From Yuukianura sp. NJ FZ-2021 (taxonomy: Eukaryota): a stretch of DNA of 64,000 bases. The notes beneath the pieces are model-generated. The model was not told the origin of the DNA, searched no databases, and was given only the letters and a program-made list of their open reading frames with translations. The stretch is taken from positions 496,001-560,000 of the forward strand of contig CM102288.1 in the NCBI GenBank assembly GCA_046563655.1, given 5' to 3'. Positions within the stretch are counted from its first letter, which is position 1, and every line of letters begins with the position of its first letter. Position numbers and translations under genes: made by a program. Shown piece after piece: positions 33,631 to 58,699 of this stretch.

Positions 33631-35054
33631 TTTCAACTTGGCACAAAACGACACTCGGTACAAGAAACTACTCAAAATTCAAATTCAAAATGTCAACTTT
33701 TTCACACTTTTGGAAATTCAAAATTTTGAAATTTAGATATTTTGAGAAATTGTGGTTTGAACTGTTGAGGAAGTGTTTAAACGGTTTTGATTCCCCCAGG
33801 GGGACTTCTGATACTGACTTGTGCAGAATCCGTTGTGTTTGGCTGCCTCCACAGTCCTTGTGCTTCGCTTTTTAGCAAACCCTGCTGAAAAATTGCAACT
33901 TTGCAAAGGGAGAGACGTAGAAGCAGGTGAAAAAGAACAATGGAATTGTAATGCCTCAGTTTCCAATTTACAATTTGGAATGGTACAGTTTTATTGTTAA
34001 GTCGATGGAAGGGGGAAGGGCTTTGTCGGGGACTTCCTAAGCCCAAAGTCACAAGGAAAGGAAAAGAACATCAAAATTTACATCACACTAACACATAAGA
34101 AGTTAAACTTGACTCAGAAGTCATTAAATTAACTACCTTCTGACTTTAACTTTAACTCACAAATGGATGCTAATGTAACTCTAGCTCCACTACTTATGCA
34201 GTACAAACAACTTTAATGGCTTTTGTGACAAGCACAAATCCAAGGACGCTAAAACATGATTTCGTAAATAATAAATTCAAATCAAGAGTTGCAAAAATTT
34301 AAATTTGCCAATACTTTTGCAATTTGAATTCTAAAATCACTTTTAACAACACGGATAATCCAGGATTTAAAAAAAATCATTTCAGCGACTAACTAGCACT
34401 AGAAAAATTAATTGAAAAGAAGAAAAAACAAGGTTAACAAAACGTAAGTTGGGTTGATGACCAAGTCTACAACAATGAAATGTGAAATGACTCAAAAACT
34501 AAATTTTTGATTTATATTTTTCATTTTCTTTTTCTTAAATGTAAAGTTTGTAGTTTTCATTTTGTTAAATTTTTACATGTGCTTACTACCTAACTAACCT
34601 ACTTTTTAGAAAGTGAACTTTTTAAATCACTGATTAACTATTTTTAACTCTCACCTACTATTTAGCATCAAAGGCTGTCAAAGATAAACAAATCAGAGTT
34701 TTCTCAAAGTGTTCTAAAATTATCCGAACTTTGATCTTAAGTGTTAAATTAGGAAGGCTCAGAAAGTATTTCTGTCTGTGACTCCACACTGAAAAAGTCA
34801 ATTTAAGGACGTGTTGTATGCGTCTAATAAACAATAATCGTTAAATTTAGTAACCACGATAACCGAGCTTGTGTAGTTAGTAAAAGTTGCAGACATCGAC
34901 AAAAAGAAACACCCTCGTGAGTGGTGAAAAAGGATCAGTGCAAATACCTTGATAAAAAAAAAGTATGCACTTTCAAACAAACAAAACTGACGCAAGTTCG
35001 GTTGCCGTCGTTTGGGTTTTGTCAACAACTTTTCTGAGGCTGCGACATTGAAAT

Positions 35055-35745
35055 GCAAAAATGGTTTTGGTCAGCGTAGGAATGTCGTACAGTAACCCAC
35101 AATATATCAAACTTTAGGAAAAGAGTTGATCTAGTACTGTTCAGATCAAATAAGAAACCGCAAAAACACCTGCACGTCGCCATGTGCTTTTTTCCCATAA
35201 GAAAAAAGAAGCTACTCACTCCTGCCTTCCTTCCCTGAGAAAAGAGGGAAGATTCTTTTTTGACGGCGAAAAGGAGGAGAATTTCAAGTTGCGCGGCTTG
35301 CAGGTGTTACCGCCAACAAATAATTTTTTATCTAAAGGAAGAACTCACAAAAAAAAATAGTTTCCAGAGATAACACCTGCATGCCGCGCAATTTCTAATT
35401 CTCTACTTTTTCGCTGTCAAAAAAGAATCTTCCCTCTTTTCTCAGGAAAGAAAGGAAGGAGTGAGTAGCTTCTTTTTTCTTATGGGAAAAAAGCACATGG
35501 CGACGTGCAGGTGTTTTTGCGGTTTCTTATTTGATCTGAACAGTACTATTACGTTTTAAAATTATGAAATTATAATTCTAACAATGAAAAAAATGGACAC
35601 AAATATTCAGCCCCTTTTTCTGCATAGTTACACTTGGAATTAAATAAGTTTGCAACGTAATAGTACTAGATCAAGTCTTTGCCTAAAGTTTGATATATTG
35701 TAGGTCACTGTACGACATTTCTACGCTGACCAAAACCATTTTTGC
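35055..35745. mobile_element. Outer foldback/MITE-like element, interrupted by a second element
   Basis: 35055-35136 plus 35546-35555 is the imperfect reverse complement of 35654-35745; exact termini and TSD not resolved. Confidence 0.7.
35137..35543. mobile_element. 407-bp MITE with about 173-bp TIRs and TA target duplication (Tc1/mariner-type target)
   Basis: Arms 35137-35309 and 35371-35543 are near-perfect inverted repeats (CTGTTCAGATCAAATAAGAAACCG.../...CGGTTTCTTATTTGATCTGAACAG); TA at 35135-36 and 35544-45. Confidence 0.88.
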
Positions 35746-36887
35746 GTGGCGGTGTTACAGCGGCATTTTGACCCCCAGTTTCCAGGGTGTCCGCACACCT
35801 TAATTTTGAAGTAATTTTTTTTGAAAATTTTTTTCACTGAAGATTTTAGTGTAATTTGAATCTTGAAAAGCTAAGTTTGTACTTTATGCCACTCGCTTAC
35901 TTAAAAGAAAAGACCTTGGACCAAAAAGAGAGAAAGTGCTTGCTCCTAAAACAATAAAAAGAAAGTAAAACTTTTACTTTTTGTGCTTTCTTCCTTGGTT
36001 CAACAAAAGATCTTACTTAGAAGAAGTAGATTTTTCTCCTTCTTAGAAAACGTAGAAACGTAGAAAAAGTGCAATTTCTTTCTCTGTTGGATACAAAGTG
36101 AGATGGGATTATAAAAAGACTTTTATTTTTATTCTTGTCAAGCAAAGCCTAATTCCAAATGAATCAAAGTGAGTGAAGGCTACAAAATGACTTCATCACA
36201 TGAACAGTGTTGAAAAGTAAATCTACAAAAAATGAAATGAAATAAAAGAAAATAGTAAAGTAAAAGTTTCGTTGAAAGAAATACAACTAAATTATACTTG
36301 GAAGCATCAGTGCAGTAAATGTTAAACTTTGAACTTATAAAAGCGCTATCATAAAACAATCATCCTAAAACAAAAGACTCACATTTAATTTCCCGAATTC
36401 ATCTTGGGAATGGATCCAATTTTCAAAAAATCTCTCTAATTGTCATCACTCCGAAAAAGAAAAATCGCCTTCTTGTGAATTTTTCCTGAAAATCAGTTTT
36501 AATTTTTGCCAATTTCTTGAAATTGGCTAAAATTAATGCAAATCAATAGAAAAAAAGCGTTTAACTTTTGAAGTCGGTACAGTTTAGAGTCTAAACTTGA
36601 GACTAAATGATTTAAAGTTGTAAGTTGGTGAAAGCAGGAGTTGAGAGGAATATGAGTGCTTGGAATGAAAAACGGAGGAGAGTTGTGCGCTTGTTCCTGG
36701 AAAAGCTGCACGGAATCCCGCAAAACCCGGGTATTTGTCTTCCTCCACCAACATTCACTTCTGAAACCTTCTTAAGGCGCGTTCTTTCCGTCAAGTGCTG
36801 GTCATTCAAATGCCACAATCAGTTCGAACAACTTTTCCTCAACGGCGACCTGCAACTTGACCTCAGAGTGAACTTTTTTTAAAAACA

Positions 36888-39371
36888 ATGTCCGTGATTT
36901 GCCCAGTTGAAAAAAGTGAGTCCCACTCATCACTGAAAGAAGATCCGGACAACATAATTATCCAAGATCACATGAGTTCATGGCGGTTCCAAATGAACAT
37001 GACGATCTTCCTCCTCTTCTACACCTTCGGCGGAGCATGGGTTAGCTTTTTTAAAAAATTTTAGCATAACTTAAGCTAACTTTTACATTAACCACAACTT
37101 TTTAAATCCATTTTAGACAATATGTTTTTTTCAAAAAGAATTCATGAAAGACGAAAGGAATAACAAAAGTACAGGAAATAAGAGCGGAAATGAAAGTAGA
37201 AAGAAGAGAAAGTAGTAATCACATTTTGAAATTTCGAAGTTTTTTGTTCATTAGAAACACTTTCTTTATTACTACTACATAATCAATTCCTGACTTCGAT
37301 TACTAATTACTTAATGCCAGAGTAAATCCCTCAGGAATTAGAATAAATTAAACTTCTTTTCTGTAACTTCCCTCATCATTCTTCTCCCGCCCCTGGAAAG
37401 TTATGAATTTTTTAAACTGCCACGCAAAAGAGGAAAGGAAGTATGTTCCGGGATTAGCATAGGGAAACTAATTTTTTAAATAAACAAAACTTTTGGGTTA
37501 AAAAGTTATGTTTTTGTATTTGGACACTGGAGGAGGCGGAACTTGTTAAACTCTCTATGAAATATGAACTTTTAAATTCAAAAGCGAGTACAAACCAACA
37601 GCATTTTGACTTTCTTTAAAAAAAGCTGAAGTACTCTAGAATTTTTTTTCTGTTTTTTGTTTCAACGAAGAGACTACCGCAAGCACTCAACAGGTTTTGT
37701 TCGTTTGTTTTGAAATTTTAATGACTTTGTTGAAAAATATACCCAATTTCCGAAATTTAATGATGGGTTTGCATTACGATCAATACCAAAATCAATACAA
37801 AAAATTTGAAGTCAGCATTTTTTTTTTCAAACTCATGTGGTCATAATTACACTAGCCTTGTCATATGCTATAATTTGACCAACAAAAATTCGAACGCTGA
37901 AACTTGAACAACTGAAATGCAACATTCTGATTTTAAACTTTTTTTTTTAGATTTTTCAGGTACTGGAGAGTCGTGCAGAAATACAAAGAGTAGAATACGA
38001 TCAGTCCATTCTGGTTTCAGGGAGATCCAAACTGTTAGACACAATTGCCAAATTGGACCAGCTCTCAACCAATGTAAGCAGCACGACATTGGGTCAAATT
38101 CTAATTTGACCTTTGACCTTTGACCTCTGGCGTTGTAAATTGCAGGACTCCAAGAGTGCCAAGTACAACGAAACACTTCGAGCCCTCCAAGAGTACGAGG
38201 CAGCCATTGACTTTGTTCTGGACAGTCGGCCTACGCTCAACCAATTCCTAAATGAAACGAAAGGACCGACGTAAGTCACTCAGCCATAGAAGTTAAGGTC
38301 ATTGACCTTTGACCTTTGACCTTTGACCTTGTAGCCTGGAGTGGAGCAACTACCTCCATGTGTACTACTTCGTTCTGACTCTAATTTCAACCATTGGCTA
38401 CGGAAACCTTGCTCCCCGGACAACTTGGGGTAGAATTTTCTGCGTCGTGTATGGAATGATCGGCATTCCAGTTCTGCTCATCTTCATTGCCCAAGCAGGC
38501 AAAATTTTAGCCAAATTCTCAATTTCAATTCTCACCAAAATCTTCGGACGACACATCGGAAGCGCCTACTTTGCATCCGGAAATACTCGGAGCAGAAAGA
38601 TGCTTGGTACGTTTAAAACCTGAATGATGCTGAATGAACTTAATTTCAATTAATTCATAATTAGTTTAATTTAATTAATTTTGATCCTAGGAACTTCAAT
38701 TTCTCTGTCTGGCGTGATCTTTTTAGTTTTCATTTACATGGCCTTCGGTGCTTTGATCATCAACTCAAATGAATCGTGGGGATTCATTAACTCTTTTTAC
38801 TTTTGTTTCGTCACACTAACTACAGTAGGGTTCGGGGACTTGATTCCGCTAGGAGGTAACATTTTGAAACTTTTTGAAAATTTTGAAACTCAAAATATTT
38901 TTTCGAAATTTTGAAAGGTCAAGTGAGCCAAGCTCCGTACTTGCTGCTGTTCGTAAGGTCCATCTACACTCTGTTTGGACTTGCCATAACATCCACAGCA
39001 ATTGCACTTCTGCAGAAGCAGTATGCAGAAACATGGGCTAAAAAGGCCGCTAGAAGAAGCGACGCAAAAGAAGCAACTACGACAATTCAGCAAGTGGAGA
39101 ACTTGATCATCCATGCTGCTGGACAGTCATGCAAACAAGTACGTGGAACTCTCTTTTCACAAAAAAAGTAAAAAAAAACTTTTAAAAAAATCAATTTCCG
39201 AGAATTTCAATTTCAAATTTGCCAAAAAGTTGAAATACTCCTATTTCTTTGTAGTACTACGACTATAAACGAGAAGATAACCTAAAAACTAATGAGGTAT
39301 TGCTTAAAAAACGAAATGCATAATTTAAAACTGAAATAGAATTTGGACATTTTTAGAAACGAAATCAATAA
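36888..39371 (+). CDS. Two-pore-domain (K2P/TWIK-family) potassium channel, spliced
   Basis: TM1 FLLFYTFGGAW-IFQVLE; P1 LISTIGYGNLAPRT; P2 FYFCFVTLTTVGFGDLIP; TM4 IYTLFGLA. Start and final exon approximate. Confidence 0.88.
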
Positions 39372-40171
39372 TGCTTAAACTTTTCATGATTTTAAGGTCT
39401 AATTTCCAATTATGAGTATTCGTTGCTAAATTATTTAAATACTGATTGTATTTTAAAAAGTTCTCTTGAAATTCTGTTGAAAAACCTCACATGACCTTTG
39501 AATGACCCCGTGATGTTCCTTATGTGTTTTAGAATAGAGCAATTTAAGTGTGAGTAAACGTCTCGTGTAATGTCATGATTGCAATTCAAAGAAGTGGAGT
39601 AGTGTTGTGGTGAAAGTCAGAATAAAGCACATAACGGAGAATGGCCTCTTCAAAAAAGCGGGAATTTTTAAAATTCCCGGGAATTTTAGCTCTAAGCTGG
39701 AGAAGATTAGTTTCCTATGGAAATTGGAGCTCGTGCAAGAGAGAATGAATCGCGAGGCAGTTTTGGTTGGAAGACTAATTTTTTAGAAAATTGGATTTTT
39801 GGAAACAAAAGAGAAAATTTGATCACACAAGATCAGATTACATGCACTTGTTCCTGTTATCGTTTCAGTCTACGACACTTTTCAAACCGAAAAATTTCAG
39901 CGAAAATTGGAATATGGCGTGATTCACAGCAATTTCCACAAAACTCATTTTTGGAATTTTCAAGATGAAAAGTCTGATTTTCACATTTTCTGAAAATGAT
40001 TTACGGTATTTGATAAATATTTTTTTTAAAGATTTTAGAGTAAAACAATCTCAGAAGAAATCTCCGCCACCAAACCCACCGTTTTTAATTTAATAGCCAC
40101 ATTAAATGTAATTTTTAACACACTAATTTCTAAAATTTAGAAGAAACTGAACTTTTTTTTTTGAAATTGTG

Positions 40172-40798
40172 TTAAGTTATATTTTGTACAGCAGTAGAAG
40201 GTGGGACATACAATTCCCCAGAATCTGATGGTCGTTTTTCATAGTACTTGGCACAGTCCTCTTTCTTCTTATTGGACTTACAGCAGTAGCACCATGGCAA
40301 AACATCAGCCAGAAGATGATTCAGTTGCATCGTCAGATTACCGCCGGACCCACCCGGAGAGTATCGGTCAGCCGTACTGCCATTCGGTGGGCCCACGATC
40401 AAGGTCCCACTAGCATCATACACACACTGCTGCCCAGCTCCATTGGCAATCGGCACTTTCTGTCTGTAGTCAGCCACTGCTCCAGCATGGAAGTAACTGA
40501 GCCCTTGAAGGGTCCCCTTGACAAAGCGAGGGTCCTTGGCCGCCAGGGCTTCCATTGGTGGACAATGTTCCAGGGTTCCACCAATCCCCGTGTCCGATTT
40601 GTACCAACTGGAGCACCACTGACCCGCCAAAACCTGCGGTATGTTGGAACACCCACCCTGAAGTACCAAGGACAGTATGCCCATTAGGTCCAGTGGATTA
40701 GATGTCGCCTGCTTATTAGCAGTACTTTTGCTCCATCCCAAGTCACTCTGCAAAAACAATACAAAAATGAAAAATATTAACGCTGATTTTGAAACCAT
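40172..40798 (-). CDS. Secreted stand-alone AMOP-domain protein, intronless
   Basis: Signal peptide; HCPP...DPRF...FHAGA...GAGQQCVYDASGTLI...GSTAD...HLLADVLPWCYCC...CAKYYEKRPSD..YVPP matches the AMOP (isthmin/SUSD2/mesh) pattern. Confidence 0.85.
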   Translation of the reverse strand: MVSKSALIFFIFVLFLQSDLGWSKSTANKQATSNPLDLMGILSLVLQGGCSNIPQVLAGQWCSSWYKSDTGIGGTLEHCPPMEALAAKDPRFVKGTLQGLSYFHAGAVADYRQKVPIANGAGQQCVYDASGTLIVGPPNGSTADRYSPGGSGGNLTMQLNHLLADVLPWCYCCKSNKKKEDCAKYYEKRPSDSGELYVPPSTAVQNIT

Positions 40799-41345
40799 TT
40801 TGAAAAGTTTGGACTTTCAACAACTTTGTTCTCTTTTGATAAGAACTACAGTGTATATATAACGTAAATGCGAGGCTAACTTTGAAAAATACGAGGCCAA
40901 TTTTGTAAAATTGGAGAATTTTAAGTAGATCCTTGTAGTAAAAGTCACTCATGACCTGGAACAACTGGAACACGAAAACCTTTCTCATTATGATTAAGTT
41001 CTAGTTGAACATTGAACAATTTGACACTTTGACAGAGGCGTGATAATGAATTAATGCTTTTCCAAAAAAAATTCACTTCCAAAAAACTTTATGTTTTTGC
41101 AAAATTTGGATTCCTGAAACTCTCCTTCAACTCTCTATTGTTCTCAGTCCACTGATCTGGAACAACTAACTACAATACTACAATAATACTTGCAAGTAGC
41201 AATCGATTATCAATGTGATAAATCAAAAAGTTTCACTTTCGGACATTTATGTAACAATTTTATAGAAATAAAAGTTATTATAACAATAATAAAAAATTAT
41301 TATAATGATTATAATATTCTAACATAAAGGTAACAAAGCTAATGT

Positions 41346-44300
41346 TCAGGGTGAATCCCAAGCGTAATCGTTGTGTTTCGACTTGGGGCTGGAGATTATC
41401 CAAGGTTTTTTGGCGGGAGATTTGCTTTTGCTCACGGCTAAATCCGTTTTAGATTCTGACAGTTTTGCTAAAGATTTGCCAGATTTGTTAATCTCAGATT
41501 TGTTGTTCTCAAATTTATTGACCTCAGATTTGTTAGAGGTCACTTCGTCGTGTGCAGAAGTTTCCCAGTCACTTGATTTGTTCAAAGCGTCTCCATGTTT
41601 TTTCGGACTGACAAGTTTAGATTTTTGTTTTTCGGTAAGTGGACTGCGGCGCTGTTTGAAATCTGGCGGAGAAAATTTTGAATCTTCCCGCTGCAAGCGC
41701 TTTAACTTTTTCGTACCGCCGGAAACCGAAGTTCCGGACGAACTTTGCGATTCGGTACGCTTGATCGCTTGACCTGATTTGACTCTTAGACCAAATTCAT
41801 TCAGTCCTGCCATTGGATTGTGGTAGATCACTGCCCGAACGGTATTCGGTTTTGTCGGCGTTCGTTTCGGAGATGCTGCGAGATTTTCTTTGTTCCAATC
41901 CTTATTGTCATCTTCGGGCACTTTCGGCTTTGGTCGGGGCCTAAAAACCAAAATTAGTTCAAAGATTTATGAAATTTTGAAGTTAGACACCAAAATTTTG
42001 AAATTTTACATACGGTTCAGATTCAATATCTGAAATGTCGTCGAAACTTCCGTTGCTGCTTTCGTCATCGTGGAGGGAAGACAGAGATTGCTCGAAATTC
42101 AAATTTTGGTCTTCATCTTTTGGTGTACTTGAGTAAACTTTATTTTGAAACGGTTCAAAATTTTCATCGGAATCGCTTGACCCATTTCGCTTCTTCTGCG
42201 CTTGCGTTCGAGTCGAAGGGCCTGGAAGCGGCGATTCTTTACTTCTAGACAGCACACTATGCTTCCCCTTCTCTATTTCCTTGGCCGCTTTTCTCTGAAT
42301 TTCAGTCAATCTCACTTCGACATGTGATTCATCCGGGGTCATGACCTTGACCTTTGGTTGACCTTTGTCAATTGACAATCTCTTGGCAGAAGTAGGCTTT
42401 CCAGGAGAACTTTTATGTGTTGGAGTTGGCGTGTTGTTGTTAAAGTTGATTGGTCTCGTTCGTTTTAGCCCTTTTTGTGCACCTCCCGACTCTTCCAGTT
42501 CATCATCCGAATCGGATTCGGAATTTTCCGACTTTTTCCGTAAAATGCTTCTCCGAAAAAAGGTTTGTATCGCCGGTTTTTTCTTTTTGGATGCTTTAGT
42601 TGCAGAAGTTTGTGACTTTGCTGGAGGAATTGGAGGTGGAGGGGCAGATTTACGGCTTGGCGGTTTCGGTTTGGCGAATGGAGGAGTCGAACCGGCTCCA
42701 ACTCTGGGAGTCGAACCGGTACCCACTCTTGGAGTCGAACCGGTACCGACGCTTGGAGTGGAACCAGCACCGGCATTAAACTTCGGTCGGATTCGGGGAG
42801 ACTGAACTTTGACCTTGGGTTTCCGTGAAGCAGTGCTGCCCATGAGAGACATTTTGCGCTTCAATGTACTTCCACCGCTTTTGACCGCTCGAAGCATTTT
42901 GGAAAGCGGTGAGGCTCCAGGCGCCTGCAGCGGTTTTGAACTTAGCCGCCGCGAATGCTGCATTTCGTTCAGTCGGGATTCAAGCACTGCTGCATTGACT
43001 GCGACGTTTGTCTCGTTTTTCTTCAGTTCCCGCTCGGCAGCAAATCCCTCCACTTCCTGTTTTAAAAAATTCAAAATTTTAAAAAAGTTGAGAAAATTGA
43101 AAAATTTGGTAAAAAAGGAGATTGACCTCTGACCTCATTTAGACTTTCCCGCCGTTTTTTCATGGCGGTAATACTTTTCTTCAGAACATTTCTCGGCACT
43201 TGCGTAGTGTCTGGTCGAATTCCAAGTTGCTCAAGCTGACGACTCAGAACTTCCAAACCCTGCGCCTGCGCATCCGGTTTTGCCGGAGTCGGACGAATCT
43301 CGAAGTCGTCTGTTTCGGTATGGGCATCCGTGGAGGTCACCAGGAAGGGGTCATTGACCTTTGGTTTTGACCTGACCGGAGATTTTGGTTGACCTTGGAC
43401 AATTTGCTCCACTGGAGCGTAACTCCCGATTGACGAAGTATCGTCACCACTTCCGGAATCGTTCGACAAATTATCCTGTTCCGGATCCGGTCGAATCGAC
43501 ACTTCAAAACCACGAGACACTACTGGCAAGGTCATTGACTTTGCCCTTGGTTGTAAACGATATTGGTCAGGCACTTTCGGGGGAAGTCCGGTAACAAGTT
43601 TCGGTGATTCGGCTCTTCGGGATTCTTCGGGTGTTTTCGGTTTCGTTTCGGCCGGTCTCGGCAAAGTTTGGATTTGTAAAGATCTTGGTCGTGGTTTCGG
43701 AATTGGCCGAAACGGTTCGGCTTCTTCAACAGATAGATTGTCGCTGTCTACAGTTGTGACTGTGGTGGCAGAGGTAATAGGTGTGGGAGGTTTGACCTTG
43801 ACCAAAATAGACTCATCCGAAGGCCAGTTGACCTTGACCTTTGGCTGAGGAGAGGATTTGACCTGATCTGTGACCTGGTGCTGGTCAACATTCTGTTGGT
43901 GCAGAGACGCTTGAAATTCTTGGCGCAGGCGTGTAATGTGTTCCTGGTACTCGTTTTCGACAGTGCGCAGCTTGGCTCTCCAAAATCGTTCTTGCGATTC
44001 CATTCGACTTTCTATCAAGCCAATATCAGCTCGAATCTAGAAGAAATAACTTAAAGTAATTAAAAAATCATTATTTTTCTAAATTTTAATTAATTACTCT
44101 AAAATTTCACCCTAGTTTGTAAATTTAGCTTCAAATGTTCAAATTCATCTTCTTGTTTTTGAATCCTCTCTTCGACACGTCCTACTAGTGCTACCGAGGG
44201 AGAAGTTAATGTCGCTGCGGCGACAACTGGAGACGACGCATGCGCTGGTTTTTGTTCTGATAGTCCTGTGGCTGATTTCGTAATAATCTCTTGCATCTTC

Positions 44301-45560
44301 TACAAAAAGAAAAAAAGTTCAAAATTTAAAAAGGTTTAGCAAGTTTATGATTGTTTTTAAAGTTTTTGAAAATTGCTGCTTTCTGACATGCATTTCTTCT
44401 AGTAAAGTTGTTTTGAGTTCCTCCAGTTCCGTTTTGTGCATTTTTTCAATGAGACTCCTCCATTGACCTTCCAGTGCCTCCTTCATGTCTCCAATTGTAC
44501 CTTGACTGGTGACCTCTGCGGTAGGCCATTGACCTTCCGATTTGGTTCCGACTGTTTCCGAACTGTGCCGAATGCCGCCCGAACTCGAACTGACTCTTTC
44601 CTTCAAGTATTCTTCCACTAGATCGTTCACTATCTGGCGGTCTATCAATGTCGCCGTAGACTTGCCTATTTGTGGCGACACTTCAGCATCGTCAGTCTGT
44701 GTCGACGCAGAAGCAACGGCGACATTTTTTTGCACAGCGTCTTGATCACTTCCTGCCTGATCTGCGGAATTTGCATTTCCGCTTTGTCGCTGAGTCGGAA
44801 GACGAATTGCTGGAAGCCCTTGATGTCGCCGTTGAAGATGTGAGTACAAGTAGACAGTGTTGATGAACTTCTTGTCGCAGTAGGGACACTGAAAATTCAG
44901 TAATTACTTAATTACAGGTGTAATTACGAATTACTGGAGTAATTACTTAACTATTTCGTTTGTATTTCGATCTCACCTGATCAACTTCTTCTCTACTTCC
45001 ACCGTAGTTTTCAAATTGGCTGGACTGAATTAAATCTTTGCGTCGTTTGAGCTCTTTTTTGGCCTCGACCAATCGGTTTCTGAGGCGTTTAATTTCTTCT
45101 TCCTGTGCTCTGCTCCTGTGCAACACTTGAGTGTACTTGGAGTCAAGGTCATTGACCTTCCCCAGCGACACTTCCTGAGAAAGTATTAAATGCTCAATTA
45201 TCAATTGACCCAGACGAAACACTTTCCGAAATCCAGGATCTGTTCGGTTGTGGTCAAATTCAACATCAGGTTGGCAGAAAACGATTTGAGGCAGGATTTC
45301 CCGCAAAGTCTCTTCATCCGTTTCTTCAATTATTTTCTCAATGTCCAACGAAGCTATAACATTCACAAAAATTAACTTTCAAAAAAATTTAATTTTTCAA
45401 AAAAATCCGAAAGTTTCAAAATTTGAAATTCCGGAGTTACTAGTAGTAGGTAGTAGACTTTGACTTTACCAATTCTTTTCCAATCCAGACTTTCTACTTT
45501 TCGCAACTGAATTGATTTGGTTAGTGATGGGGATGGATTTGGAAACAGGATTCTGGACAT
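41346..45560 (-). CDS. DZIP1: DZIP1/DZIP1L (iguana) ciliary basal-body C2H2 protein
   Basis: ESLDWKRI-ASLDIEKII...DPGFRKVFRLGQLIIEHLILSQ (Dzip-like N domain), CPYCDKKFINTVYLYSHLQRRH zinc finger, coiled coils, long low-complexity tail. Confidence 0.88.
42683..42775 (-). repeat. Coding 24-bp tandem repeat x4 (G[AT]GSTPxV)
   Basis: GAGSTPSV GTGSTPRV GTGSTPRV GAGSTPP; DNA core ggagtcgaaccgg. Confidence 0.85.
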
Positions 45561-45731
45561 TTTAATTTTTCGGAAAATTTTTCAAAATTCTGTTCAAACA
45601 CGTCCAAATACCAAGTTTAGAACACAGATGAACTTTGAAACTTGTATTACTGTGAGTGATTGTATATTTTTCTATCAAGTTGTTTTAAACAAAATCAGAC
45701 CCTCGTGTTTCATGTCCCTGTCTACGTATCG

Positions 45732-45745
45732 GTTGCCATGGCAAC
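45732..45745. promoter_or_regulatory. Perfect palindromic RFX X-box upstream of DZIP1
   Basis: GTTGCCATGGCAAC, about 170 bp upstream of the ATG at 45560, followed by a further GTTGCC half-site. Confidence 0.88.
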
Positions 45746-47157
45746 CGTTGCCAACAACATTCGCATGGTACAGTACAAAGCGTAGAGCAGATTTTTTTTT
45801 GAATTCGTAACTTGTTTTCAACTGTGTTTGAAAAATAAAGTGATCCTGTTAAAAATTAATGGTTTTATTTAATTCTTTCAGATTTGTAAAACATTTAAAT
45901 TTTGAATTGTTAAAACATAAACACTTATGGTCAATATTATATTGGTAAAGTTAAATTTTAACAGCTTATCTACTAATAAGCCTAACTTTGAAGTAATTGC
46001 AAGAAAATTTGAAAATTGGCAGTATTTGATAATTTGATATTACGCAACCTTGTCAAAAAAAAATTTTTTTAAAAGCACTTCCTGTACATTTTTAGGAGAT
46101 AACTTTAAATGACGTCTGGACTTTTCTTGATTTCGGTAGAAAAATTGTGAATCATTTTTCGAAGATAAGATTGTGCAAATTCTGTAGTTTTTTGCCATTG
46201 TACAAGGTTACATCATCCCCTCCCGTCTTTAGCAAAGAGTCAAGGAAATCTGGCAAAACAAAAGATGAGTCAAAAGTTAAAATTAAACTTAAACTTTAAT
46301 GGTCGTGCAATTGCAAAGAATTGCAAATTAGCTAACTTGTGGTGTCAAGTTCTTGTGAATTGTGATTTTGACTATATGCTTAAGCTGAAGTTTCTGATTC
46401 ATCCCTAAGCCCCTCCCACTTCCTTCCAAAAACGTAGAAATGTGAAAACCAAATTCAAAATTTTGACGAATACTTCGTTTTTTAATATAAAACTCTCACG
46501 CGGGATAATAATTAAAATGTTGCTTCCGCGATCTTTACCGTGACCTAAATTTACACTTTTCCTCACTTGTCTAAAAAAAAAACTACCAAAAAGAGATGAC
46601 AAGGTGTTGGCCTTGCTTGAGTGACTCTCGTCTCAAGGCCAAAACTTCCCTGTTTCTACCATAATTACACAGTTTTGTTGTTTTGTTTATAAAGATGAGC
46701 TCATCTGCTGCATGTTGACGAAAAACTTGTTTTATAATGGGCAAAATTTCTAATTTATAGTTTTAAACTTCCAAAACAAATTGACTTGAAGACAAGTTTC
46801 AAATTGATGATCAACTAAAAGCTTGATGAACAACTAAATTATTCACGAATTCAAGAAATTAACGAATTCTAAAATCAAAAAGAAATTGAAATTGTACAAC
46901 TCTGTACAAACTGCAAGAAATGCTAAACTTCAAAAGATTCTTTCCAAATTTGATTCTTTGGCACAAACTCTTAGCCCCATTTTTGAATCGTTTCCAAATT
47001 GAAGCAAAATTCTTGCTGAATCTTGATCATTGAACTCAAAAAGACAAATACTTTGAAGTTTCAAAATTTAAGATCTTCTAACAATTGAAACTGAACTTAA
47101 CTTATAACTAGGAGTTAAATTGTTAATTAAGTTAGGAATTACTTGATTGTTGTGACT

Positions 47158-47331
47158 CTAAGAAGATCCTTGGAGTACGACCCACAAAGCATGGATGATC
47201 CCGGGAATCCAGAAGAAGAAGCAGAGACAAATGTTGATGGCAATGTCTTGACCACACCCTTTGACCAAGAAAACAGCCAAAGGTGGAAGCAGAATGGCCA
47301 AAATGATGATCAAAATATCCTTGGGTTCCAT
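47158..47331 (-). CDS. PMP3/UPF0057 (RCI2/YqaE-type) small plasma-membrane proteolipid, 57 aa, intronless
   Basis: MEPKDILIIILAILLPPLAVFLVKGCGQDIAINICLCFFFWIPGIIHALWVVLQGSS* has the family signatures ILLPPLAV and IPGIIHAL; below the ORF-track length cutoff. Confidence 0.92.
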   Translation of the reverse strand: MEPKDILIIILAILLPPLAVFLVKGCGQDIAINICLCFFFWIPGIIHALWVVLQGSS

Positions 47332-48869
47332 TTTCCAAAATTCAACACTCCTCCAAACTTCAAAATTTCAAAATTCTACCAACTCCCAACTTTCCAAGTT
47401 TAATTTTTAATCTGTGTGTGCTGACTGCTGCCAAGCGTCTGGCTAAAAACAAAAGTTGAAAGCATCATCATCATCCACTGCCAACACCCACCACCTCCCT
47501 TGCAAATCCTATCTTACAGATAAATGCTAAATCCAATGTTTGTTACATCTCCCCAACCTAAACAAAATGCTTGGCTTCTGTATATGTTCCTGATGGTAGT
47601 TTCAAATTTTTTGAAGATTCTACACTCAAGTGAAGCCTAAAAGCACTTTTTCCTATGCTAGCAAAACTATTTTGGGTGGAGCTGGAACATCAGCAGATCT
47701 TCAAAACCATTTTTTCTTCCAACTCCTTCAACCATTTTTTGTTTATTTCCTTTTTCATTGCTAAAAAGTACAACAAAAGTAGCATATTTTGGACTCTTTC
47801 ACTTTCACTTTTCATTCTAACTCGCTTATTCTGTTGGCTTTGAAACCAAAATTTGTTGGCTCGAGTGGTCACGCATAAATACTTAGCGAGCAAAAAAAAT
47901 TTCCGTTTTTGTCACTCCCATAAAACTGCGGTTGTGCTGCGTTGAAGTGAATGAAAATAGGCAAATTACAAAAAAAAAATGCTGGAGGCAGTTTTTTTGG
48001 GAAAGAATGAACGTGTTTTGAAGGCTAAATACTTCCTCTTACTGTGAAAACTTCAACAAAAGTTGTGGTTACCCAAAGATGGCTGGTGGTTACAGTGGTT
48101 ACCTTGTTACGGTTATGGTTAGGAGTTTAATGCAGTTAAACTAAATTAGCATAGTCTCTGGAAGTAGGAGCAAAACATGAAGTTAAAATGTAACTTTTTG
48201 GAACTGTTTCAATTTTAAATTGAAAAATTGGAACCACTTAAACTCAATCAGAAAAAAACTTATGCCAGCTTTAAAACATAAAAAGTGATTGTGAGTGAAC
48301 CATAATCTGACTTTCTCGAGCCAATCCAATTTCGTTATAATTATCCACTTAAGCCGAGTTGGGGTCAAGGTCAAAAGGTCATGCGACAACTTTTGACCTT
48401 GCTTTAACTTCGTTTTCAGGATAAACTTCGAAAGAAAAGTCTTACTTCAACTGAAATAAATTAACCAATGTCCTCCGCGGTTCTTCGACCTTTACTTTTT
48501 AAAGCGGTTTTTAAACTTGACAAAATGAGCGTAGGAAAACGAAGCGGTGACATAACAAAAACAAACTAAAAGTTTACACTTGAAAGGTTCCGCTACTCAA
48601 ACAGAGGCCAAAGGTGACTGAATATGGAGCTAAAGCGACAATCTTAAGTATAAACTTCAAGTTAAGTGCGTGTGATAAGTAAATTTTTAAACAAACTTAA
48701 ATTAACAGTTAAACAAAGTACGCTGACTCCAGAGATTCTTAGAATTTGACTCGAATTTGTGTAAATGTTGCAATTTCATCTGAATTTCAAAAGTCAAAAA
48801 TGTTAAGTTAATCAGAAACTTCAGAAATTGCCAGACTTAAGCATAAATTAAACTTTGTGAATCAAGAAC

Positions 48870-50666
48870 TTAGCCCTGCTTTCCAATTTCCAGTTTCTTC
48901 TTGATGAGTTGATTTGATTTGTAAATAGTGGCGTCCAGTAGTCCAGCGACAGTGAAGATTCCACCAATGATGGCACACACACTCGTGGCAAAATGGCCAA
49001 ACGACCTTAAATCAACAACAACATTGTTCATTTCAGTTTAAAATTAAACTAATTAATCTGTTTGAATTTGGTCCAACTCACTTTCGCTTTTCAGTAAACT
49101 TGATCATAATGGGTGAAATGTCGTAAGAAAAGAAAACTCCCGGCATTCCACTCTCTCCGCTCATCATGCTAACGGCCTTCTGATGTCGTGTTGTCGAGTA
49201 CTGATTTGTATGTAAAACGCTTCTATTCAAGGCTTCGTACATAGTTGGAACAATTTTCAAGTAGTATTGATACATCATTGACTCTGAAATGTTGAACATA
49301 CATTAAAACATTAAAGACAAAAATTTTTTAAAAAAATCACTACTTTTACAACTGAAAACTTACCTTCATGAGCAACTCCATCAACGCCATCCATCGGATT
49401 AGTAATTGTTCTGCCTAAAAGTTTGGAATTAATAGCAGATTGATGAGAATTTTGATTGATTAATTTTAACAGATTTAATTGATTTAGTCCTACCAGGAAT
49501 GGGGTCACCAAAACTAAGGCTGTTGATATGATGTGTCATATTAAACTGACTTGAGGAATAAGGCTGTACATCGTGCACTGGAAACAGTACAATTTTTCAT
49601 AAAACAATTTAACACAACTTTTTTTTTCGGTTGAACTCACCATGAACGTGACTTATTGAGAAACTTTTGCCTGGTGCTATATGAAAGCTTCCAGAAACTC
49701 GATTGACCTCCATGTAGCCATAGATCTGACATCCTTCATTAAAAACCTTCAGCATGTCCGCCACCATCCCCTTGCACTGAACAATCGTTTCAGGAGACTG
49801 CATTGCCCAACCTGTTCAAATCATTTAGAAGGCAAACAATTATACACATGTAGATTTGAAAACTATGAAGTCAACATACCTTTGATTCTATACGCTTCTT
49901 TGACCTCTTCACAAGTATTGCAACATTTTAGAGCCGGAGACTCTGCCCCGTAGCAGCTTCCGCATGCCGGCTTTGCGACGGAAGTGTCGTTGTTCTGTCC
50001 CTCGGATTCCGAAGGTGACGATTCTGTCTCCGTTTTATCATCCGTTCTGTTTTTGCCTATACTGCTATCACCTAGGTCTACAAAAACGAAATTCTGTCGT
50101 TAGATGAAACAAGCCTCTGTAGATTTTCGAAGTGCTTTACTAATTGTCTTCTCGGGATCGCTTATTGGAATCCCTTCGGAGTTCAGCCGGCGTTTAAAAA
50201 TATTGTGCTCAATTGACGTCTGATGCTCTCCTGAGGAGTCCATTGCATCCAGACTTAAAACTGAAATTTAAACAAATCATAAATATTAGGCCGACGTGAA
50301 ATTAAAATGTAATCAATTATTAGCATGCTTGACTTACAGGAACATGCCACTCGCGGAAAGACAATGTCTAAATTAATTCTGAGCTTGTGAGATCTCCCAA
50401 TATCAACAAAGAGCTCTTCAGTAACTTTCGGGGTCAAAAAATCACATAATTCAGAGATGAACAGGGCTCCGATTATTATTGTACTGATGATCGTCACTAT
50501 ACAAAAATGAAATGTAAATTAACACATTGATGGTTTTCATAACTGACGGTTAATTGATTGATTGTCTTGCATTACCTGAACCACCAATCTTAGTTTTAAT
50601 TCTAAAATCTTCAATCGGTTTAGGATAGGCATCCAAGTCTCGTAAACGCTCCCATATGTAAGACAT
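48870..50666 (-). CDS. ERGIC3: ER-Golgi intermediate compartment protein 3 (Erv46)
   Basis: LDAYPKPIEDFRIKT, CGSCYGAE..CCNTCEEV, EGCQIYGYMEVNRVSGSFHIAPG, MPGVFFSYDISP, CAIIGGIFTVAG, KKLEIGK. Confidence 0.95.
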
Positions 50667-51861
50667 TTTTTTAATCCCTAACTTTTTACTTTAATTTATC
50701 AGTGTCCTTATTAATGAAAATAACTTTGTGCCTAATTAAACACTTATGCCGGGTGCCGTACAAGATCAACAGTTACAGTTAATTTGACACCTTGACACTG
50801 ACAGAAGGAGTTGTCGGATGCCAGCAAAAGAGACAGTGACAAAACAACAACAGATTAATTAATTAAAGTTCATTAATTAAAAAAATTGACAGCAGTCAAT
50901 ACACAGTTGGAGTAAGGTTTAACGACCGTTATTTTAACCACACAGTATAGCCATTTTTAAGACTACAATGGGTGGGTGGCTACACTGTGCGTCTACTTTT
51001 GTTGCCACTTTACGTTAAGTTTCTTTAAGTCAGAATGGCTACAAATGTGGTTACATTAGATGGTTGTCTGTTGTAGCCACACAAGTTGGTCGGAATGGCT
51101 ACATTGTGATGTTACAATAATGCTCATTAATCCTTACGTCAGCTCTTTAAAACTCAAGTGGCGGTGTTTTAACAAAAATTGAAATTCAAACTTTTAAAAT
51201 TCAAACTTTTAAAATTCGAACTAAAAAAAATTTACCCGCCCTTTTGTTTCTTTCGCGTCACCAACCACAGAACATATTCATTGCCTTAAAAAATTGCGTT
51301 GATTGGTCAAATTACTAATTAAATTTTTAGAATTAAAAAGTTAACACCTTGTTTTGAGTAATTGAAGGTCACTTTATTTCCACTTTATTTCAGTTGTGCA
51401 GGTAAATTCTAAACTCTCACGTGATCTAAATAAGTTTGAAGTAAGTGTGATTTTGATTGATTAATCCCATTTCAATTTAAATTAACTTCTTCGCCAAATC
51501 ACGACCAATTTTTCTAAAAAAGGAAGGCACAGATTAGTCTTCGGAGTGAGTTGATTGTTACAATAAACTAAAGACATGCACTAAATTTATGCCATTAACC
51601 CTTGACCTTTGAGCCTTTCCTTTACAATTGAGCTTTGGGTTTCGGGAGTTAAAGATTCATTAGAGTATAAGTTAATCACAATCAACCATTTCCTAATATA
51701 CACAATTTACATGGGAAGAACATCTTGCCATAACTGTGTGATGAAGAAGAGACAATACAAAAAGATGAGTCTGAAAATTATTGCTTGATTCTGGAAGGAT
51801 TTTGACAGTTTGAAGTAACCTTTGATATTAAATTGCAGATTGGTCGCTGTGTTTTTAAATT

Positions 51862-52805
51862 TTACCAGTCGCTGCTAATTTCAAATTTCCAGTCCCATTG
51901 CAAATGGATGTTTTTGTCATCGTCAGTGAATGTGGAGTTCACAGAGTAATTTCCACGGAACAACAAACCGGACGGAGCCTCTTCTGGAGCGGCAGTAAAA
52001 CTTTGGATTTCCATTTTTGGAGCGTAACTTCCAACCATTGGAGACATCGTGTCAACTGAAATCAATAAAAAATGAATTTGTAATGTACCCTAAATCCTCG
52101 CATATACCGCGCCGTTATCTGCGGTTCAGTTGGTTGCAATTTCCATTATTTTGAACCTTACCGCGGATCCCCTTGCGTGACGTTTTTTGAACGTACTTGA
52201 GCCCATGAACGATTTCGCGTTGCACAATAAAATCAATCCTGATTCGGTACTGGATTCCTTCCTTAATCTTAAATTTCTGTTCCTTCAGTTTCGACAAATC
52301 TCCGGTAAGGTCCAGTTCCTTATCCGGCATTCCTTCCACCATCAGCGCCAGTTTCTTAACGATGACGTTACGGGGGTCATTCGGATCTGTATGTAAATAG
52401 TAAGAAACGAATAACGTTTTAAAGTCGTCGATATTCCGGCATTAGCATCGATAAATCATAGATTCCTTCTAAAATAAACTTCAACATATGCTGTTTAATG
52501 TTAATACGAAACAGCCGACCGGATACAATCCAGACCTGGGAGTCATCACATTCTCGACAGCTTACATAAACATATCATGCGTTTTTTAACCCGCGTTTTT
52601 GCGTTTCTTTAAGATTCATACCGTAAATAATCTTTTCTCCCGAAACGGCTCCACCCAAAAGTGCTTCCTTGTAGCGTTGAAGACTCTTGTCATCCTTGTC
52701 AGCTTCAATTAATTCCTCCAGTGTCTTCTGTGGTGGTGGTTTGTAATTTTGGTCAATTTCTTCGCCCTCTACATCAACAGATCCGTCTTGCTCCCGAGAT
52801 GACAT
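51862..52805 (-). CDS. RhoGDI: Rho GDP-dissociation inhibitor
   Basis: NYKPPPQKTLEEL...SLQRYKEALLG, FKIKEGIQYRI, MVGSYAP, EEAPSG, FTDDDK..HLQWDW. Confidence 0.96.
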
Positions 52806-54084
52806 TTTGCTATGCTAATAACTGGTCGGTACGATTCTGTCAACGGTAAATCTGCCAAAATCAGAGGAAAAGTCAACTTTTTAGGCATAATGAATTTCAG
52901 ATAGGAGAAAACGAGAAATAGCGTTCAAGATCAAGAGTTACTGACCTCTGTTTCTGTGCCGGTAATCTAAATGACGTAGAAGTTGTACTGAATGTTGAAT
53001 TCGGTGTTAATTAGTTTAATTAAAACAAACAAAACGGTGGTGGGTGTTTTCTTAAAATGAGGAAACTTTGTGATTAAAATGAAATTGTGAATGGGCTGGG
53101 CTTTACGGTTTCTCTCTAATTTCCTCTACGCGCCTCATCAGCACAAAGTCTCACTCTTTTTGCCAATTTTGTCACTCCGCATCGACACCTTTTACCAACA
53201 CCAAAACAGTTGTACGACTCATTTGCATAGGATATTCAATATCTACACACGGCTGTGAGGTTTCGCACGCCAACTACTAATTTAGTAACTTACAAAAAAA
53301 AGTCTGCAATTAAACGAATTAAACGGTAGTTTACCATGTGTTGAAGAGATTCGATTACACATTTTGGCAACTTTTTTCTAAAAATTTAAATCGGAAGTAC
53401 GCTGTATACTGATACTCGACTTTATGCGTTTAACGGGGTTTAACCATTATGAAATCACTCAATAAGATTTGGTGGAGCTTAATTCTAATTGGTAATTGTT
53501 AATACTAAATACGCCAAGCCAAGAATTATTGCAAAACATTTCTTGAAACGTGGAAAAGACAATCTCGTCAAATCTGTAGAACTTGTTTTTTATCACGAGA
53601 AGTAAAACTTTTAATTTTTATTGAACGATCTTAAAAGAATGAACAATAATTCAATTCCGATCCCGAGTAACACCCAGAAAAGAGATCATAATCAAAGGCG
53701 TGGCATCGTCTTGAATGAGAGTACTTCGAAGAAAGTTGCAAAAAATTTGCAAAACTTTTTAGTCTTGTTTGCAAAAATAAAAAGTGAAAGTAAATTAGCA
53801 AAACAAAGAGTTTGATTTTAATTAAGACCTGGGTGGGATCATATGACTCGTATGCGTCAGCGTCATAAGAAGTTCGAATGATTCAGCACAAAAGTTGTGG
53901 AAAACAGATGATCGAATCCTGTCCTGTTATTTGCAAAGTTGTCTCTTCGTCAATAACAAAGTGATCTTGAGCATAAGTGGGTGGTCAGTAATTAGCTCTG
54001 AACTTGTATACAAAGTCAAAGGTCAAAGGTCACATTATTACGCCATAAGGTGACATGGAGTCCTGCTAACGTTTTACGATAAAA

Positions 54085-58178: not shown

Positions 58179-58699
<521 letters not shown>

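Follow-up and report, generated by a model that had tools for sequence, protein, structure and literature searches.

The 64,000-nt window, the whole stretch of DNA that was analysed (position 1 is its first letter), contained 192 TGACC/GGTCA words, each counted on either strand as one half-site. Dinucleotide shuffles yielded 98.7 ± 10.0 half-sites, and none of 100 shuffles reached 192. The exons of a DZIP1-like (cilium) gene, in which a preliminary description had noticed the motif, are the densest instance of this enrichment and not a special case. The spacing of the half-sites follows the dimer grammar of nuclear receptors, and we tentatively regard them as selected, putative receptor-type sites for protein binding to double-stranded DNA, overlapping coding sequence across a multi-gene domain. 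We hold this reading to be somewhat short of an even chance.

Half-sites in the DZIP1-like exons

The identity of the DZIP1-like gene was indicated by a Pfam Dzip-like_N match (8e-18) at 44947-45378(-), and a C2H2 finger was found at 44319-44903(-) (Pfam). The exons are predictions from open frames, splice-site reading, Pfam domains and two orthologous loci, and the phase of the E6/E7 junction is provisional. All five motif patches of the preliminary description were located together with their peptides on the minus, coding strand, as judged from the translations and the peptide context of each site.

41349..45354, minus strand: DZIP1-like gene (Pfam Dzip-like_N and C2H2, open frames, splice sites, orthologous exons in L001 and L002)
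45354-44977, 44888-44388, 44299-44111, 44036-43134, 43056-42010 and 41939-41349, minus strand: predicted exons E2 to E7 (frames and splice sites)
near 45470-45563, minus strand: predicted exon E1 with the start codon
42337..42363, minus strand: patch in E6, four half-sites in total (IR0, DR0 and one more half-site); peptide KGQPKVKVMT, encoded by DKGQPKVKVMTP
43123..43134, minus strand: DR1 at the junction of E5 and its intron, TGACCTCTGACC on the plus strand
43335..43394, minus strand: patch in E5, six half-sites including an IR1 at 43349-43359; peptide QGQPK..KVNDP, encoded by VQGQPKSPVRSKPKVNDPFLVTS
43793..43887, minus strand: patch in E5, seven half-sites including the DR0 pairs 43793/43799 and 43829/43835; peptide QVTDQVKS..PKVKVN..VKVK, encoded by QNVDQHQVTDQVKSSPQPKVKVNWPSDESILVKVKP
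44464..44534, minus strand: patch in E3, three half-sites, in EGQW, EVTSQ(G) and EGQW
45147..45157, no strand assigned: perfect IR1 GGTCATTGACC within the exon encoding Dzip-like_N; peptide LGKVNDLDS (KVNDL)

The intron that follows E5 must start with GTCAGAGGTCAA on the coding strand. Between 42330 and 45160, 28 half-sites were counted against 4.8 expected from the local base composition, and TGACC ranked at the top of 60 5-mers of the same composition (median 3). The DZIP1-like coding sequence (3609 nt) held 32 half-sites, while shuffling of synonymous codons left 9.2 (sd 2.6, maximum 18), shuffling of codon order 7.2 and shuffling of mononucleotides 6.2; in each case none of 2000 shuffles reached 32. 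Composition plus codon bias had been set by the preliminary description against its own proposal. Chance, base composition or codon bias is favoured by the GC content of positions 42001-44000 (0.477, above that of the window) and by the richness of the DZIP1 exons in K, V, Q and G. It is nevertheless refuted by the shuffles of this coding sequence and of the whole window, by the comparison of codon choice with first-half genes and by the counts in other genes, and its likelihood is negligible.

Sense GGTCA occupied all three frames in DZIP1, with 15 cases at codon position 3, six at position 1 and two at position 2. Residues of the type [KEQ]-V-[KNTIMSR] were spelt xxG GTC Axx in 12 of 17 instances in DZIP1 and in one of 15 in first-half genes (first 31 kb; Fisher P 3e-4), and G-[QH] was spelt with GGT in all six instances in DZIP1 versus three of 13 in first-half genes (P 3e-3). 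The suggestion that the motif dictates codons and residues at the DNA level was thus supported by the use of three frames and by the skew in KV-type and GQ-type codons. A codon choice biased toward retaining the motif, as in duons and exonic enhancers, was apparent from both this skew and the synonymous shuffle. The position of the motif within translated exons is indicated by long open frames bearing Pfam domains and by orthologous exons at 36-41% protein identity in two relatives (loci L001 and L002), the exons being predicted. Whether the sites are read or not, the recurrent KVKV, GQPK and KVND in proteins of this organism would be by-products of the DNA and should not be taken as protein motifs.

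Extent of the motif-rich domain

The half-site density changed at about position 32250 (LLR 35.7), from the chance level on the left to strong enrichment on the right, and GGTCA separated the two halves more strongly than any other of 511 5-mers (P 4e-17). The motif-rich domain spans at least 32 kb, as it extends to the end of the window and its right edge lies beyond view. In this right half, coding DNA was enriched 4.5-fold and the rest 3.0-fold, over at least nine genes, and clusters were found outside open frames as well. Coding DNA was approximated across the window by stop-to-stop frames of at least 90 codons, a proxy that misses short exons and tilts slightly to the strand that has GGTCA in sense, given the TGA within TGACC; a codon-usage caller was dropped as too weak (15% of the window called). 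Rfam searches over the whole window returned no family at the gathering score, and domain searches found no nuclear-receptor gene within it. Several frames of the first 31 kb had no Pfam domain and were low-complexity on reading.

32251..64000, no strand assigned: motif-rich domain, 152 half-sites (4.8 per kb) versus 40 in 1-32250 (1.2 per kb)
32446..32600, minus strand: in-frame tandem repeat (DDPEVND / DDPKVKG; family D4) with seven half-sites, N-terminal in a Tctex-1-domain gene
38092..38328, plus strand: the two largest arrays, one inverted half-site and 3 x TGACCTT at 38092-38125, and an IR1 and 4 x TGACCTT at 38297-38328
40175..40816, minus strand: AMOP-domain exon with a hydrophobic N-terminus, two half-sites
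54021..54226, plus strand: DR1 at 54021-54032, about 50 nt 5' of the first ATG of an open frame, and three sense half-sites within the frame
59576..59974, no strand assigned: three IR1 palindromes (59576, 59773, 59964) and seven more half-sites in or beside minus-strand open frames
61598..63878, minus strand: clusters in a PA-domain/RING E3 ligase gene and a KIF9-like gene (IR1 and DR1 at 61598; DR1 at 61726, 62959 and 63189; DR0 at 63709)
62804-62842, minus strand: DR1 and DR0 inside the PA-domain exon of the E3 ligase gene, with both orientations present

Both largest arrays lie in introns of a two-pore K+ channel gene (Ion_trans_2 match at 38327-38620(+)), just 5' of an acceptor site and with TGACCTT on the sense strand. 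They are the only tandem arrays of more than three copies in the window (3.1 perfect copies at 38105-38126 and 4.1 at 38302-38330). In the Tctex-1-domain gene, two further repeat copies at 32344-32436 were devoid of half-sites. No half-site was present in three conserved-domain exons of the motif-rich domain (38327-38620, 61811-62113 and 62104-62547).

The preliminary description had explained the patches as a property of low-complexity DZIP1 exons. This did not hold, given that the other genes of 32251-64000 carried 51 half-sites versus 18.3 on synonymous shuffling (0 of 1000 shuffles reached 51), that the non-coding remainder was enriched as well and that no enrichment was seen in long open frames within the first 31 kb (13 half-sites versus 12.7). 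The patches had further been proposed as candidate enhancers of the neighbouring AMOP gene. This gene does lie about 0.5 kb downstream of the DZIP1-like gene on the same strand, and exonic enhancers (eExons) of neighbouring genes form an established class (PMC4745165; PMC13216554). However, over 32 kb like patches were present in introns and in no fewer than eight other genes, the AMOP exon together with 500 nt upstream was motif-poor (three half-sites, at 40366, 40620 and 40952), and nothing favoured AMOP over DZIP1 itself or other neighbours. No tie between the patches and AMOP was found, and the chance that AMOP is their target appears very slight.

Spacing, strand and origin of the half-sites

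The window contained 14 DR1 (TGACCNNTGACC) and seven IR1 (GGTCANTGACC), versus 0.07 and 0.03 in shuffles, and six DR0 versus 0.53 under an order-4 Markov null, while other half-site spacings were near background. These counts reveal the dimeric arrangement at fixed spacing (DRn, IRn) that characterizes nuclear-receptor elements. The window contained 28 DR0, DR1, IR0 and IR1 pairs, 21 of which by hand count fall in the motif-rich domain, roughly one such pair every 1.5 kb; 86 of the 192 half-sites were solitary. The centre of the IR1 was A or T in all seven, and the letters between the cores of the DR1 were T followed by T or C in all 14. A palindrome with a 1-nt spacer has no origin by slippage and allows no RNA folding. 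The cores were preceded by A or G in 143 of 192 cases and thus conform to the RGGTCA type of half-site. The counts in the second against the first half were 91/19 for AGGTCA (enriched 4.8x), 28/5 for GGGTCA (enriched 5.2x) and 26/9 for TGGTCA; CGGTCA (7/7) was not enriched, and AGTTCA, the K variant of RGKTCA, hardly so (35 versus 23).

A signal at the RNA level, with sense AGGUCA as a U1-binding pseudo-donor or splicing enhancer and intronic UUGACC as a branch-point or pyrimidine-tract element, could explain why two of six DZIP1 donors read GTCAGA, one of them inside a DR1, and why both large arrays are placed next to acceptors in the sense orientation. It would also accord with the 23 sense and nine antisense sites of DZIP1, but this excess vanished once the constraint on in-frame antisense TGA was allowed for: neither DZIP1 (23:9, P 0.21) nor the other open reading frames (31:20, P 1.0) showed a strand bias beyond the 0.6 expected. 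The symmetry points to a reading of double-stranded DNA and not of RNA. Both orientations occurred in single exons such as that at 62804-62842, clusters lay outside open frames, and the IR1 and DR1 spacing has no RNA rationale; an RNA signal is very improbable.

Motif residues were ordinary homologous residues in alignments with the relatives. They fell in window-only columns in four of 67 cases, compared with 72 of 914 for other residues, and were identical to a relative in 30 of 63 cases, compared with 366 of 842. The sites thus arose by substitution, and an origin by insertion of DNA was rejected on the count of window-only columns. A micro- or minisatellite of TGACCTT was dismissed in view of only two arrays of more than three copies, the solitary half-sites and the seven palindromic IR1. 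Transposon-borne sites were dismissed likewise, as the cluster-bearing repeat families D6 and D9 share the motif alone (66-80% identity with flanks). Tandem duplications of the motif were the commonest exact ones of their size, with AAGGTC x2 at six of 69 6-mer loci, and AAAGGTC x2 and AGAGGTC x2 at seven and three of 26 7-mer loci; other 6- and 7-mers were less duplicated. By hand count, most DR1 pairs are exact repeats of the entire 7-mer. Together these observations indicate that duplication contributes to the sites.

The orthologous loci of both relatives showed a weaker enrichment than the window, with 11 half-sites versus 6.1 expected in L001 (P 0.03) and five versus 1.8 in L002 (P 0.026). 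Each locus carried one perfect DR1 in coding DNA, that of L002 two to four residues from the E3 patch at 44464-44534. Three of the relatives' 16 sites lay within one residue of a site in the window, compared with 1.15 expected, so that conservation of position was not significant (P 0.10; 0.07-0.19 depending on the tolerance), the relatives being distant. At KPKVK, one 14-nt stretch was identical with a relative. A first metagenome scan with exon E2 gave 589 pattern matches and no relatives, and a word-index protein search with the N-terminal DZIP1 exon gave 447 candidates, none of which scored.

Possible readers of the motif and comparison with known systems

DR1, DR0 and IR1 of RGGTCA correspond to the site grammar of dimeric nuclear receptors such as RXR/HNF4/COUP-TF and EcR-USP. 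DR1 is bound by RXR, HNF4, COUP-TF, TR4 and PPAR-RXR, and IR1 by EcR-USP ('PAL1') and FXR-RXR. In the reading that we favour, RGGTCA half-sites, mainly as DR1, DR0 and IR1, would be candidate recognition sites that point substitution wrote into any tolerant sequence across a chromosomal domain that includes several genes and spans 32 kb or more. In a gene-dense genome, tolerant sequence would often be coding, so that sites would overlap exons and force codons (AAG GTC AAx, GGT CAA) and residues (KV, EV, GQ, DL). The binder would probably be a nuclear receptor, selection would keep the sites, and the transcriptional output might be that of an intragenic enhancer or silencer or of a hormone-responsive domain. 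Against this reading, a dimeric site every 1.5 kb or so, sustained for 32 kb or more, is, to our knowledge, far above the receptor-regulated loci of model animals, and the half-site density is orders of magnitude above any that we know of in model genomes. A bolder version, which we consider doubtful, is that a contiguous territory of at least 32 kb bears a receptor-type DR1/IR1 code that overrides synonymous and even residue choice in at least nine unrelated genes and leaves the adjoining 32 kb untouched. Such a code for territory-wide hormone response or chromosome identity would run through coding sequence and persist, with turnover, in distant relatives.

The sites might instead be the neutral by-product of motif-biased mutation in one chromosomal region, tolerated in unconstrained protein and read by no protein, either through in-register duplication of AAGGTC/AAAGGTC units or through biased gene conversion or repair favouring the word. 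The prevalence of motif duplications, the perfect arrays in two introns, the turnover of site positions between relatives and the empty conserved-domain exons all agree with such a process, and a mutational regime particular to the region would produce the sharp boundary more readily than selection acting on each gene separately. Slippage, however, cannot produce the seven IR1 palindromes, many half-sites are solitary, duplication is less marked in other 6- and 7-mers, and motif residues occupy homologous columns. Neutral inflow and decay at equilibrium should yield about as many one-off as perfect copies, but the 15 one-mismatch core variants were barely enriched (203 in the second versus 194 in the first half, ratio 1.05; all-hexamer median 0.94), whereas RGGTCA rose from 24 to 119. 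The argument from this absence of a halo of decayed copies presumes equilibrium, and a recent burst would look identical. We know of no mutational process with such word specificity and consider this origin rather unlikely. Alternatively, the word could be read by a protein that labels the territory for dosage compensation, meiotic pairing or insulation, the receptor-like grammar being coincidental or the reader a co-opted receptor. The single change point, which separates chance-level density from 3.0- to 4.5-fold enrichment whatever the function or coding status of the genes, and the number of unrelated genes affected (at least nine) speak for such a mark, as does its resemblance to the domain-wide short-word enrichment of nematode and fly pairing-centre and X-recognition motifs. 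It is rendered improbable by the presence of RAGGTCAA in the first half too (eight copies, versus about 2.4 reckoned from base composition) and by DR1, IR1 and DR0 preferences that fit a known transcription-factor family without extra assumptions; moreover, in a 64-kb view the 'domain' may be a mere run of similarly regulated genes.

Duons are dual-use codons. As in duons and exonic enhancers, recognition words in coding exons here bias codons and residues, and these candidate elements may act on the host gene or on an adjacent one. Those elements are heterotypic and defined by occupancy or reporter activity, whereas a single word, recognised by its sequence, was found here. Unlike in duons, this word is enriched in non-coding DNA as well as in the coding parts of nine or more genes, with a sharp boundary. 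Receptor elements are described by an RGKTCA DR1-DR5 rule (PMC1785376). The sites share with them the RGGTCA core, direct repeats with a 1-nt A/G spacer and inverted repeats with a 1-nt A/T centre, but AGTTCA, which many receptors accept, hardly takes part in the enrichment. Alu-borne DR2 and HNF4 sites represent a lineage-specific expansion of receptor sites, in which a clade likewise gained very many consensus sites quickly (PMC1785376; PMC3252374). Those sites are carried by a transposable element; here the similarity of clusters ends with the motif (D6, D9) and the residues are homologous. Words that mark territories, such as nematode pairing-centre and rex/MEX motifs and fly MSL recognition elements, are enriched whatever the gene function. 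The present word similarly covers a contiguous stretch, with a change point and chance-level density on one side, but those words lie mainly outside coding DNA and have zinc-finger or other non-receptor proteins as their readers, and the view here is of 64 kb. A full-text literature search gave no account of domain-wide receptor half-site enrichment in coding DNA in the passages returned among its matches.

Should a protein read the sites, a code of regulatory or chromosomal function would constrain protein sequence on a scale without a described parallel among dual-use codons, and the locus would offer a clean natural system to gauge how large a share of protein sequence space can be taken up by a DNA-binding code. 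It would also allow a test of whether enhancers move into exons in very compact animal genomes, and could represent a new kind of territory mark. If no protein reads them, the locus is a sign of a mutational process that is specific for a word and so far unrecognised.

Contigs of X5 and X1, compared with positions 42001-62000, showed 1073 differences and 319 indels. A few X1 contigs joined one motif cluster to another, a hint of look-alike clusters elsewhere in the genome.

Gene setting and the DZIP1 gene model

The window consists of gene-dense animal DNA with a GC content near 0.39, introns of 40-115 nt and about 20 open frames with Pfam domains across its 64 kb. These include short-chain dehydrogenase, protein kinase, LanC-like, DHHC, RRM/SPOC, Tctex-1, two-pore K+ channel, AMOP, Rho-GDI, PA and RING domains as well as a KIF9-like exon. 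On the minus strand lies a DZIP1-like gene, recognized by Pfam matches to Dzip-like_N (8e-18) and to a C2H2 finger. Its exon model is a prediction.

Predicted exons of the DZIP1-like gene and the AMOP exon
45354-44977, minus strand, DZIP1 predicted exon E2
44888-44388, minus strand, DZIP1 predicted exon E3
44299-44111, minus strand, DZIP1 predicted exon E4
44036-43134, minus strand, DZIP1 predicted exon E5
43056-42010, minus strand, DZIP1 predicted exon E6
41939-41349, minus strand, DZIP1 predicted exon E7
40175-40816, minus strand, AMOP exon with a signal-peptide-like start, following DZIP1 on the same strand

At the E6/E7 junction (42010-41939) the reading frame is lost when the GTAAAA donor is joined to the TTTTTAG acceptor, the most evident pair of sites; either another acceptor is used (CCAAAG at about 41925) or translation stops prematurely. 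Of the six DZIP1 introns read, two are forced to start with GTCAGA (44387-44382 and 43133-43128, minus strand), because no other GT precedes an in-frame stop. Animal donors rarely have C at position +3 of the intron. The second of these donors (43133-43128) sits within a direct repeat of the half-site with a 1-nt spacer (DR1), GAG/GTCAGAGGTCAA. Exon E6 also contains an in-frame 24-nt repeat of 3.8 copies encoding GSTPRVGT (42683-42772), which has fewer copies in L001, a distant orthologous locus.

A weak cyclic-nucleotide-binding match (E 4e-4; 13073-19202, minus strand) lies downstream of open frames which, we presume, resemble Na+/H+ exchanger membrane segments, and the region may encode a sperm-type exchanger. 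The exchanger-like gene and the Tctex-1, DZIP1 and KIF9-like genes suggest that the organism has motile cilia or flagella.

Regional extent of the motif and codon choice

The window contains 192 TGACC/GGTCA half-sites, compared to 98.7 ± 10 in dinucleotide shuffles, and this excess is regional. A two-rate model placed a single change point at about 32250 (LLR 35.7); the 40 sites to its left (1.2 per kb) are at chance level, whereas the right half holds 152 sites (4.8 per kb). In the right half both the coding proxy (83 sites vs 18.6 expected, 4.5x) and the remaining DNA (69 vs 23.3, 3.0x) were enriched, and in the left half neither was (13 vs 18.5 and 27 vs 26.5). Among 511 5-mers GGTCA was the most differential between the halves (P 4e-17), and all leading 6- and 7-mers that differ derive from it. 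When DZIP1 was left out, the right-half open frames contained 51 sites compared to 18.3 under synonymous shuffling, a number reached in 0 of 1000 shuffles. The left-half open frames, several of which lack a Pfam domain and appear to be of low complexity, carried 13 sites with 12.7 expected. The patches had been regarded as a property of the low-complexity exons of DZIP1. This view could not be upheld, since the same enrichment occurs in other right-half genes and in the non-coding rest, and the left-half frames, several of them apparently of low complexity, remain at chance. Within the right half seven sites fall in the PA-domain exon and none in strongly conserved exons (K+-channel pore, RING region); the largest arrays (38092-38125 and 38297-38328) lie in introns.

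Within DZIP1, the five patches and their peptides named in the preliminary description were found at their positions, including a perfect inverted repeat with a 1-nt spacer (IR1) at 45147-45157. Between 42330 and 45160 there are 28 half-sites compared to 4.8 expected from local composition, the top count among 60 5-mers of the same composition (median 3). The DZIP1 coding sequence (3609 nt) holds 32. Synonymous-codon shuffling, which keeps the protein unchanged, gave 9.2 (sd 2.6, maximum 18), codon-order shuffling 7.2 and base shuffling 6.2, and 32 sites were reached by 0 of 2000 shuffles of any kind. Of the sense GGTCA copies, 15 begin at codon position 3, six at position 1 and two at position 2; all three frames are used, and therefore a single DNA word gives KV/EV, GQ and RS peptides. 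For the tripeptide [KEQ]-V-[KNTIMSR], the spelling xxG GTC Axx accounts for 12 of 17 cases in DZIP1 and 7 of 13 in other right-half genes, compared to 1 of 15 in left-half genes. The corresponding use of GGT in G-[QH] is 6/6, 16/22 and 3/13. The three-frame use and this codon skew support the earlier claim of amino acids dictated by the motif. Amino-acid composition and codon bias fail to account for the shuffling results and the skew, which leaves chance or composition a practically negligible explanation.

Spacing of the half-sites and their probable reading as DNA

In the window, 106 of the 192 half-sites lie at most 30 nt from another. DR1 occurs 14 times (0.07 expected), IR1 seven times (0.03) and DR0 six times (0.53), and all other spacings are near background. 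On the AGGTCA strand the DR1 spacer is A in 11 cases and G in three, and only A or T occurs at the IR1 centre. Of the 192 sites, 143 have a purine immediately 5' of the core; AGGTCA (91 right vs 19 left) and GGGTCA (28 vs 5) are both increased, compared to a flat CGGTCA (7 vs 7). Judged from the sequence, this pattern of spacings and flanks follows the grammar known from dimeric nuclear receptors. We take DR1 to be of the RXR/HNF4/COUP-TF type and IR1 of the EcR-USP type. An RGKTCA direct-repeat rule for receptor sites is contained in passages of an earlier study (PMC1785376).

The DZIP1 sites are divided into 23 sense and 9 antisense copies, as might be expected of a signal in RNA. TGA is part of the antisense word, which one frame therefore cannot accommodate. 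This sets the sense expectation at 0.6, and relative to it neither DZIP1 (P 0.21) nor the remaining right-half frames (31:20, P 1.0) showed a strand bias. Moreover, single exons hold both orientations and palindromes. An RNA signal is thus very unlikely, and the sequence pattern favours reading of the sites as double-stranded DNA.

In the K+-channel gene both long TGACCTT arrays (38092-38335) precede acceptor AGs by about 5-25 nt, and their pyrimidine-rich strand is the sense strand. Their UUGAC presumably fits the loose branch-point pattern yUnAy, and the arrays may double as splice signals. A signal-peptide-like open frame (57180-57824, minus strand) begins with MALTLGHLPL, and over these codons lies an everted pair, TGACCTAAGGTCA (57778-57790).

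Relatives, origin of the sites and alternative readings

Exon E5, used as the query of a full HMMER search, gave five relatives, and a metagenome scan gave DNA of the orthologous loci L001 (exons 4-7) and L002 (exons 3-5), with 36-41% protein identity to the window. In 2592 coding nt of L001 there are 11 sites (6.1 expected, P 0.03) and in 1206 nt of L002 there are five (1.8 expected, P 0.026); each has one perfect coding DR1 where the window has none or a degenerate version. Positional agreement of these 16 sites with the window was not significant, neither within one residue (3/16 vs 1.15 expected, P 0.10) nor within five (6/16 vs 3.16, P 0.07). At K-P-K-V-K, AAACCCAAGGTCAA is identical between the window and L001. 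Because both loci are enriched without significant positional agreement, the motif tendency is old and common to these relatives, far stronger in this species, with sites that turn over. Contigs of X1, the sequencing run best matching the window, differ from 42001-62000 by hundreds of alternative letters and indels, many of them also present in X5, a run whose label names another organism and which differs from the window by roughly 3%. The pattern points to high heterozygosity or a pool of individuals, and to a very close relationship between the two labels.

An origin from inserted DNA was ruled out, as motif residues sit on homologous residues: 4/67 fall in window-only alignment columns, compared to 72/914 of the others. 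Their conservation is similar, with 30/63 motif residues and 366/842 other residues identical to a relative. The sites therefore arose by substitution. Nothing but the motif is common to the clusters. Short duplication also contributes: AAGGTC x2 is the commonest exact 6-mer tandem duplication (6/69 loci), and AAAGGTC/AGAGGTC x2 are the commonest of 7-mers (10/26 loci). RGGTCA counts 119 right and 24 left, and the 15 one-mismatch core variants 203 and 194 (median ratio of all hexamers 0.94). With neutral inflow and decay at equilibrium, we would expect one-off copies to be about as numerous as perfect ones. Because one-mismatch copies are nearly absent relative to this expectation, their scarcity suggests either that the sites are maintained or that they arose in a recent burst. 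In the Tctex-1-domain gene, units of 42-51 nt are repeated in tandem and in frame at the N-terminus (32340-32628); four copies (32446-32628) contain TGACC..GGTCA pairs (DDPEVND, DDPKVKG) and two (32344-32436) have unrelated bases in the corresponding places; gain or loss by point change is thus visible between paralogous units.

The best reading, to which we give slightly less than even weight, is that the words are selected, receptor-type putative protein-binding sites spread across a multi-gene domain. They would overlap coding DNA because a compact genome leaves little other sequence free. A mutational process biased towards the word is a rather unlikely source of the pattern, and it is improbable that another protein reads the word as a territory mark. 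The preliminary description had the patches serve AMOP; an enhancer specific to this gene is scarcely credible, as AMOP and its upstream 500 nt contain only three half-sites and at least eight other genes are patched in the same way. Exonic enhancers and dual-use codons (passages of PMC4745165 and PMC13216554) and repeat-borne expansion of receptor sites (passages of PMC1785376 and PMC3252374) are already known; full-text literature searches returned no paper describing a homotypic receptor half-site code that extends over a whole domain and through its coding sequence.

Two further repeat structures were observed. At 35039-35761, a stretch without long open frames, 198-nt arms (90% complementary, 21 nt apart) are enclosed by 103-nt arms (87% complementary), and these nested inverted repeats look like a foldback or MITE-like element. 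At 56228-56627 an 18-nt unit is repeated about 23 times within a minus-strand open frame of 247 codons, which also encodes a histidine run and probably represents a repetitive secreted or structural protein.
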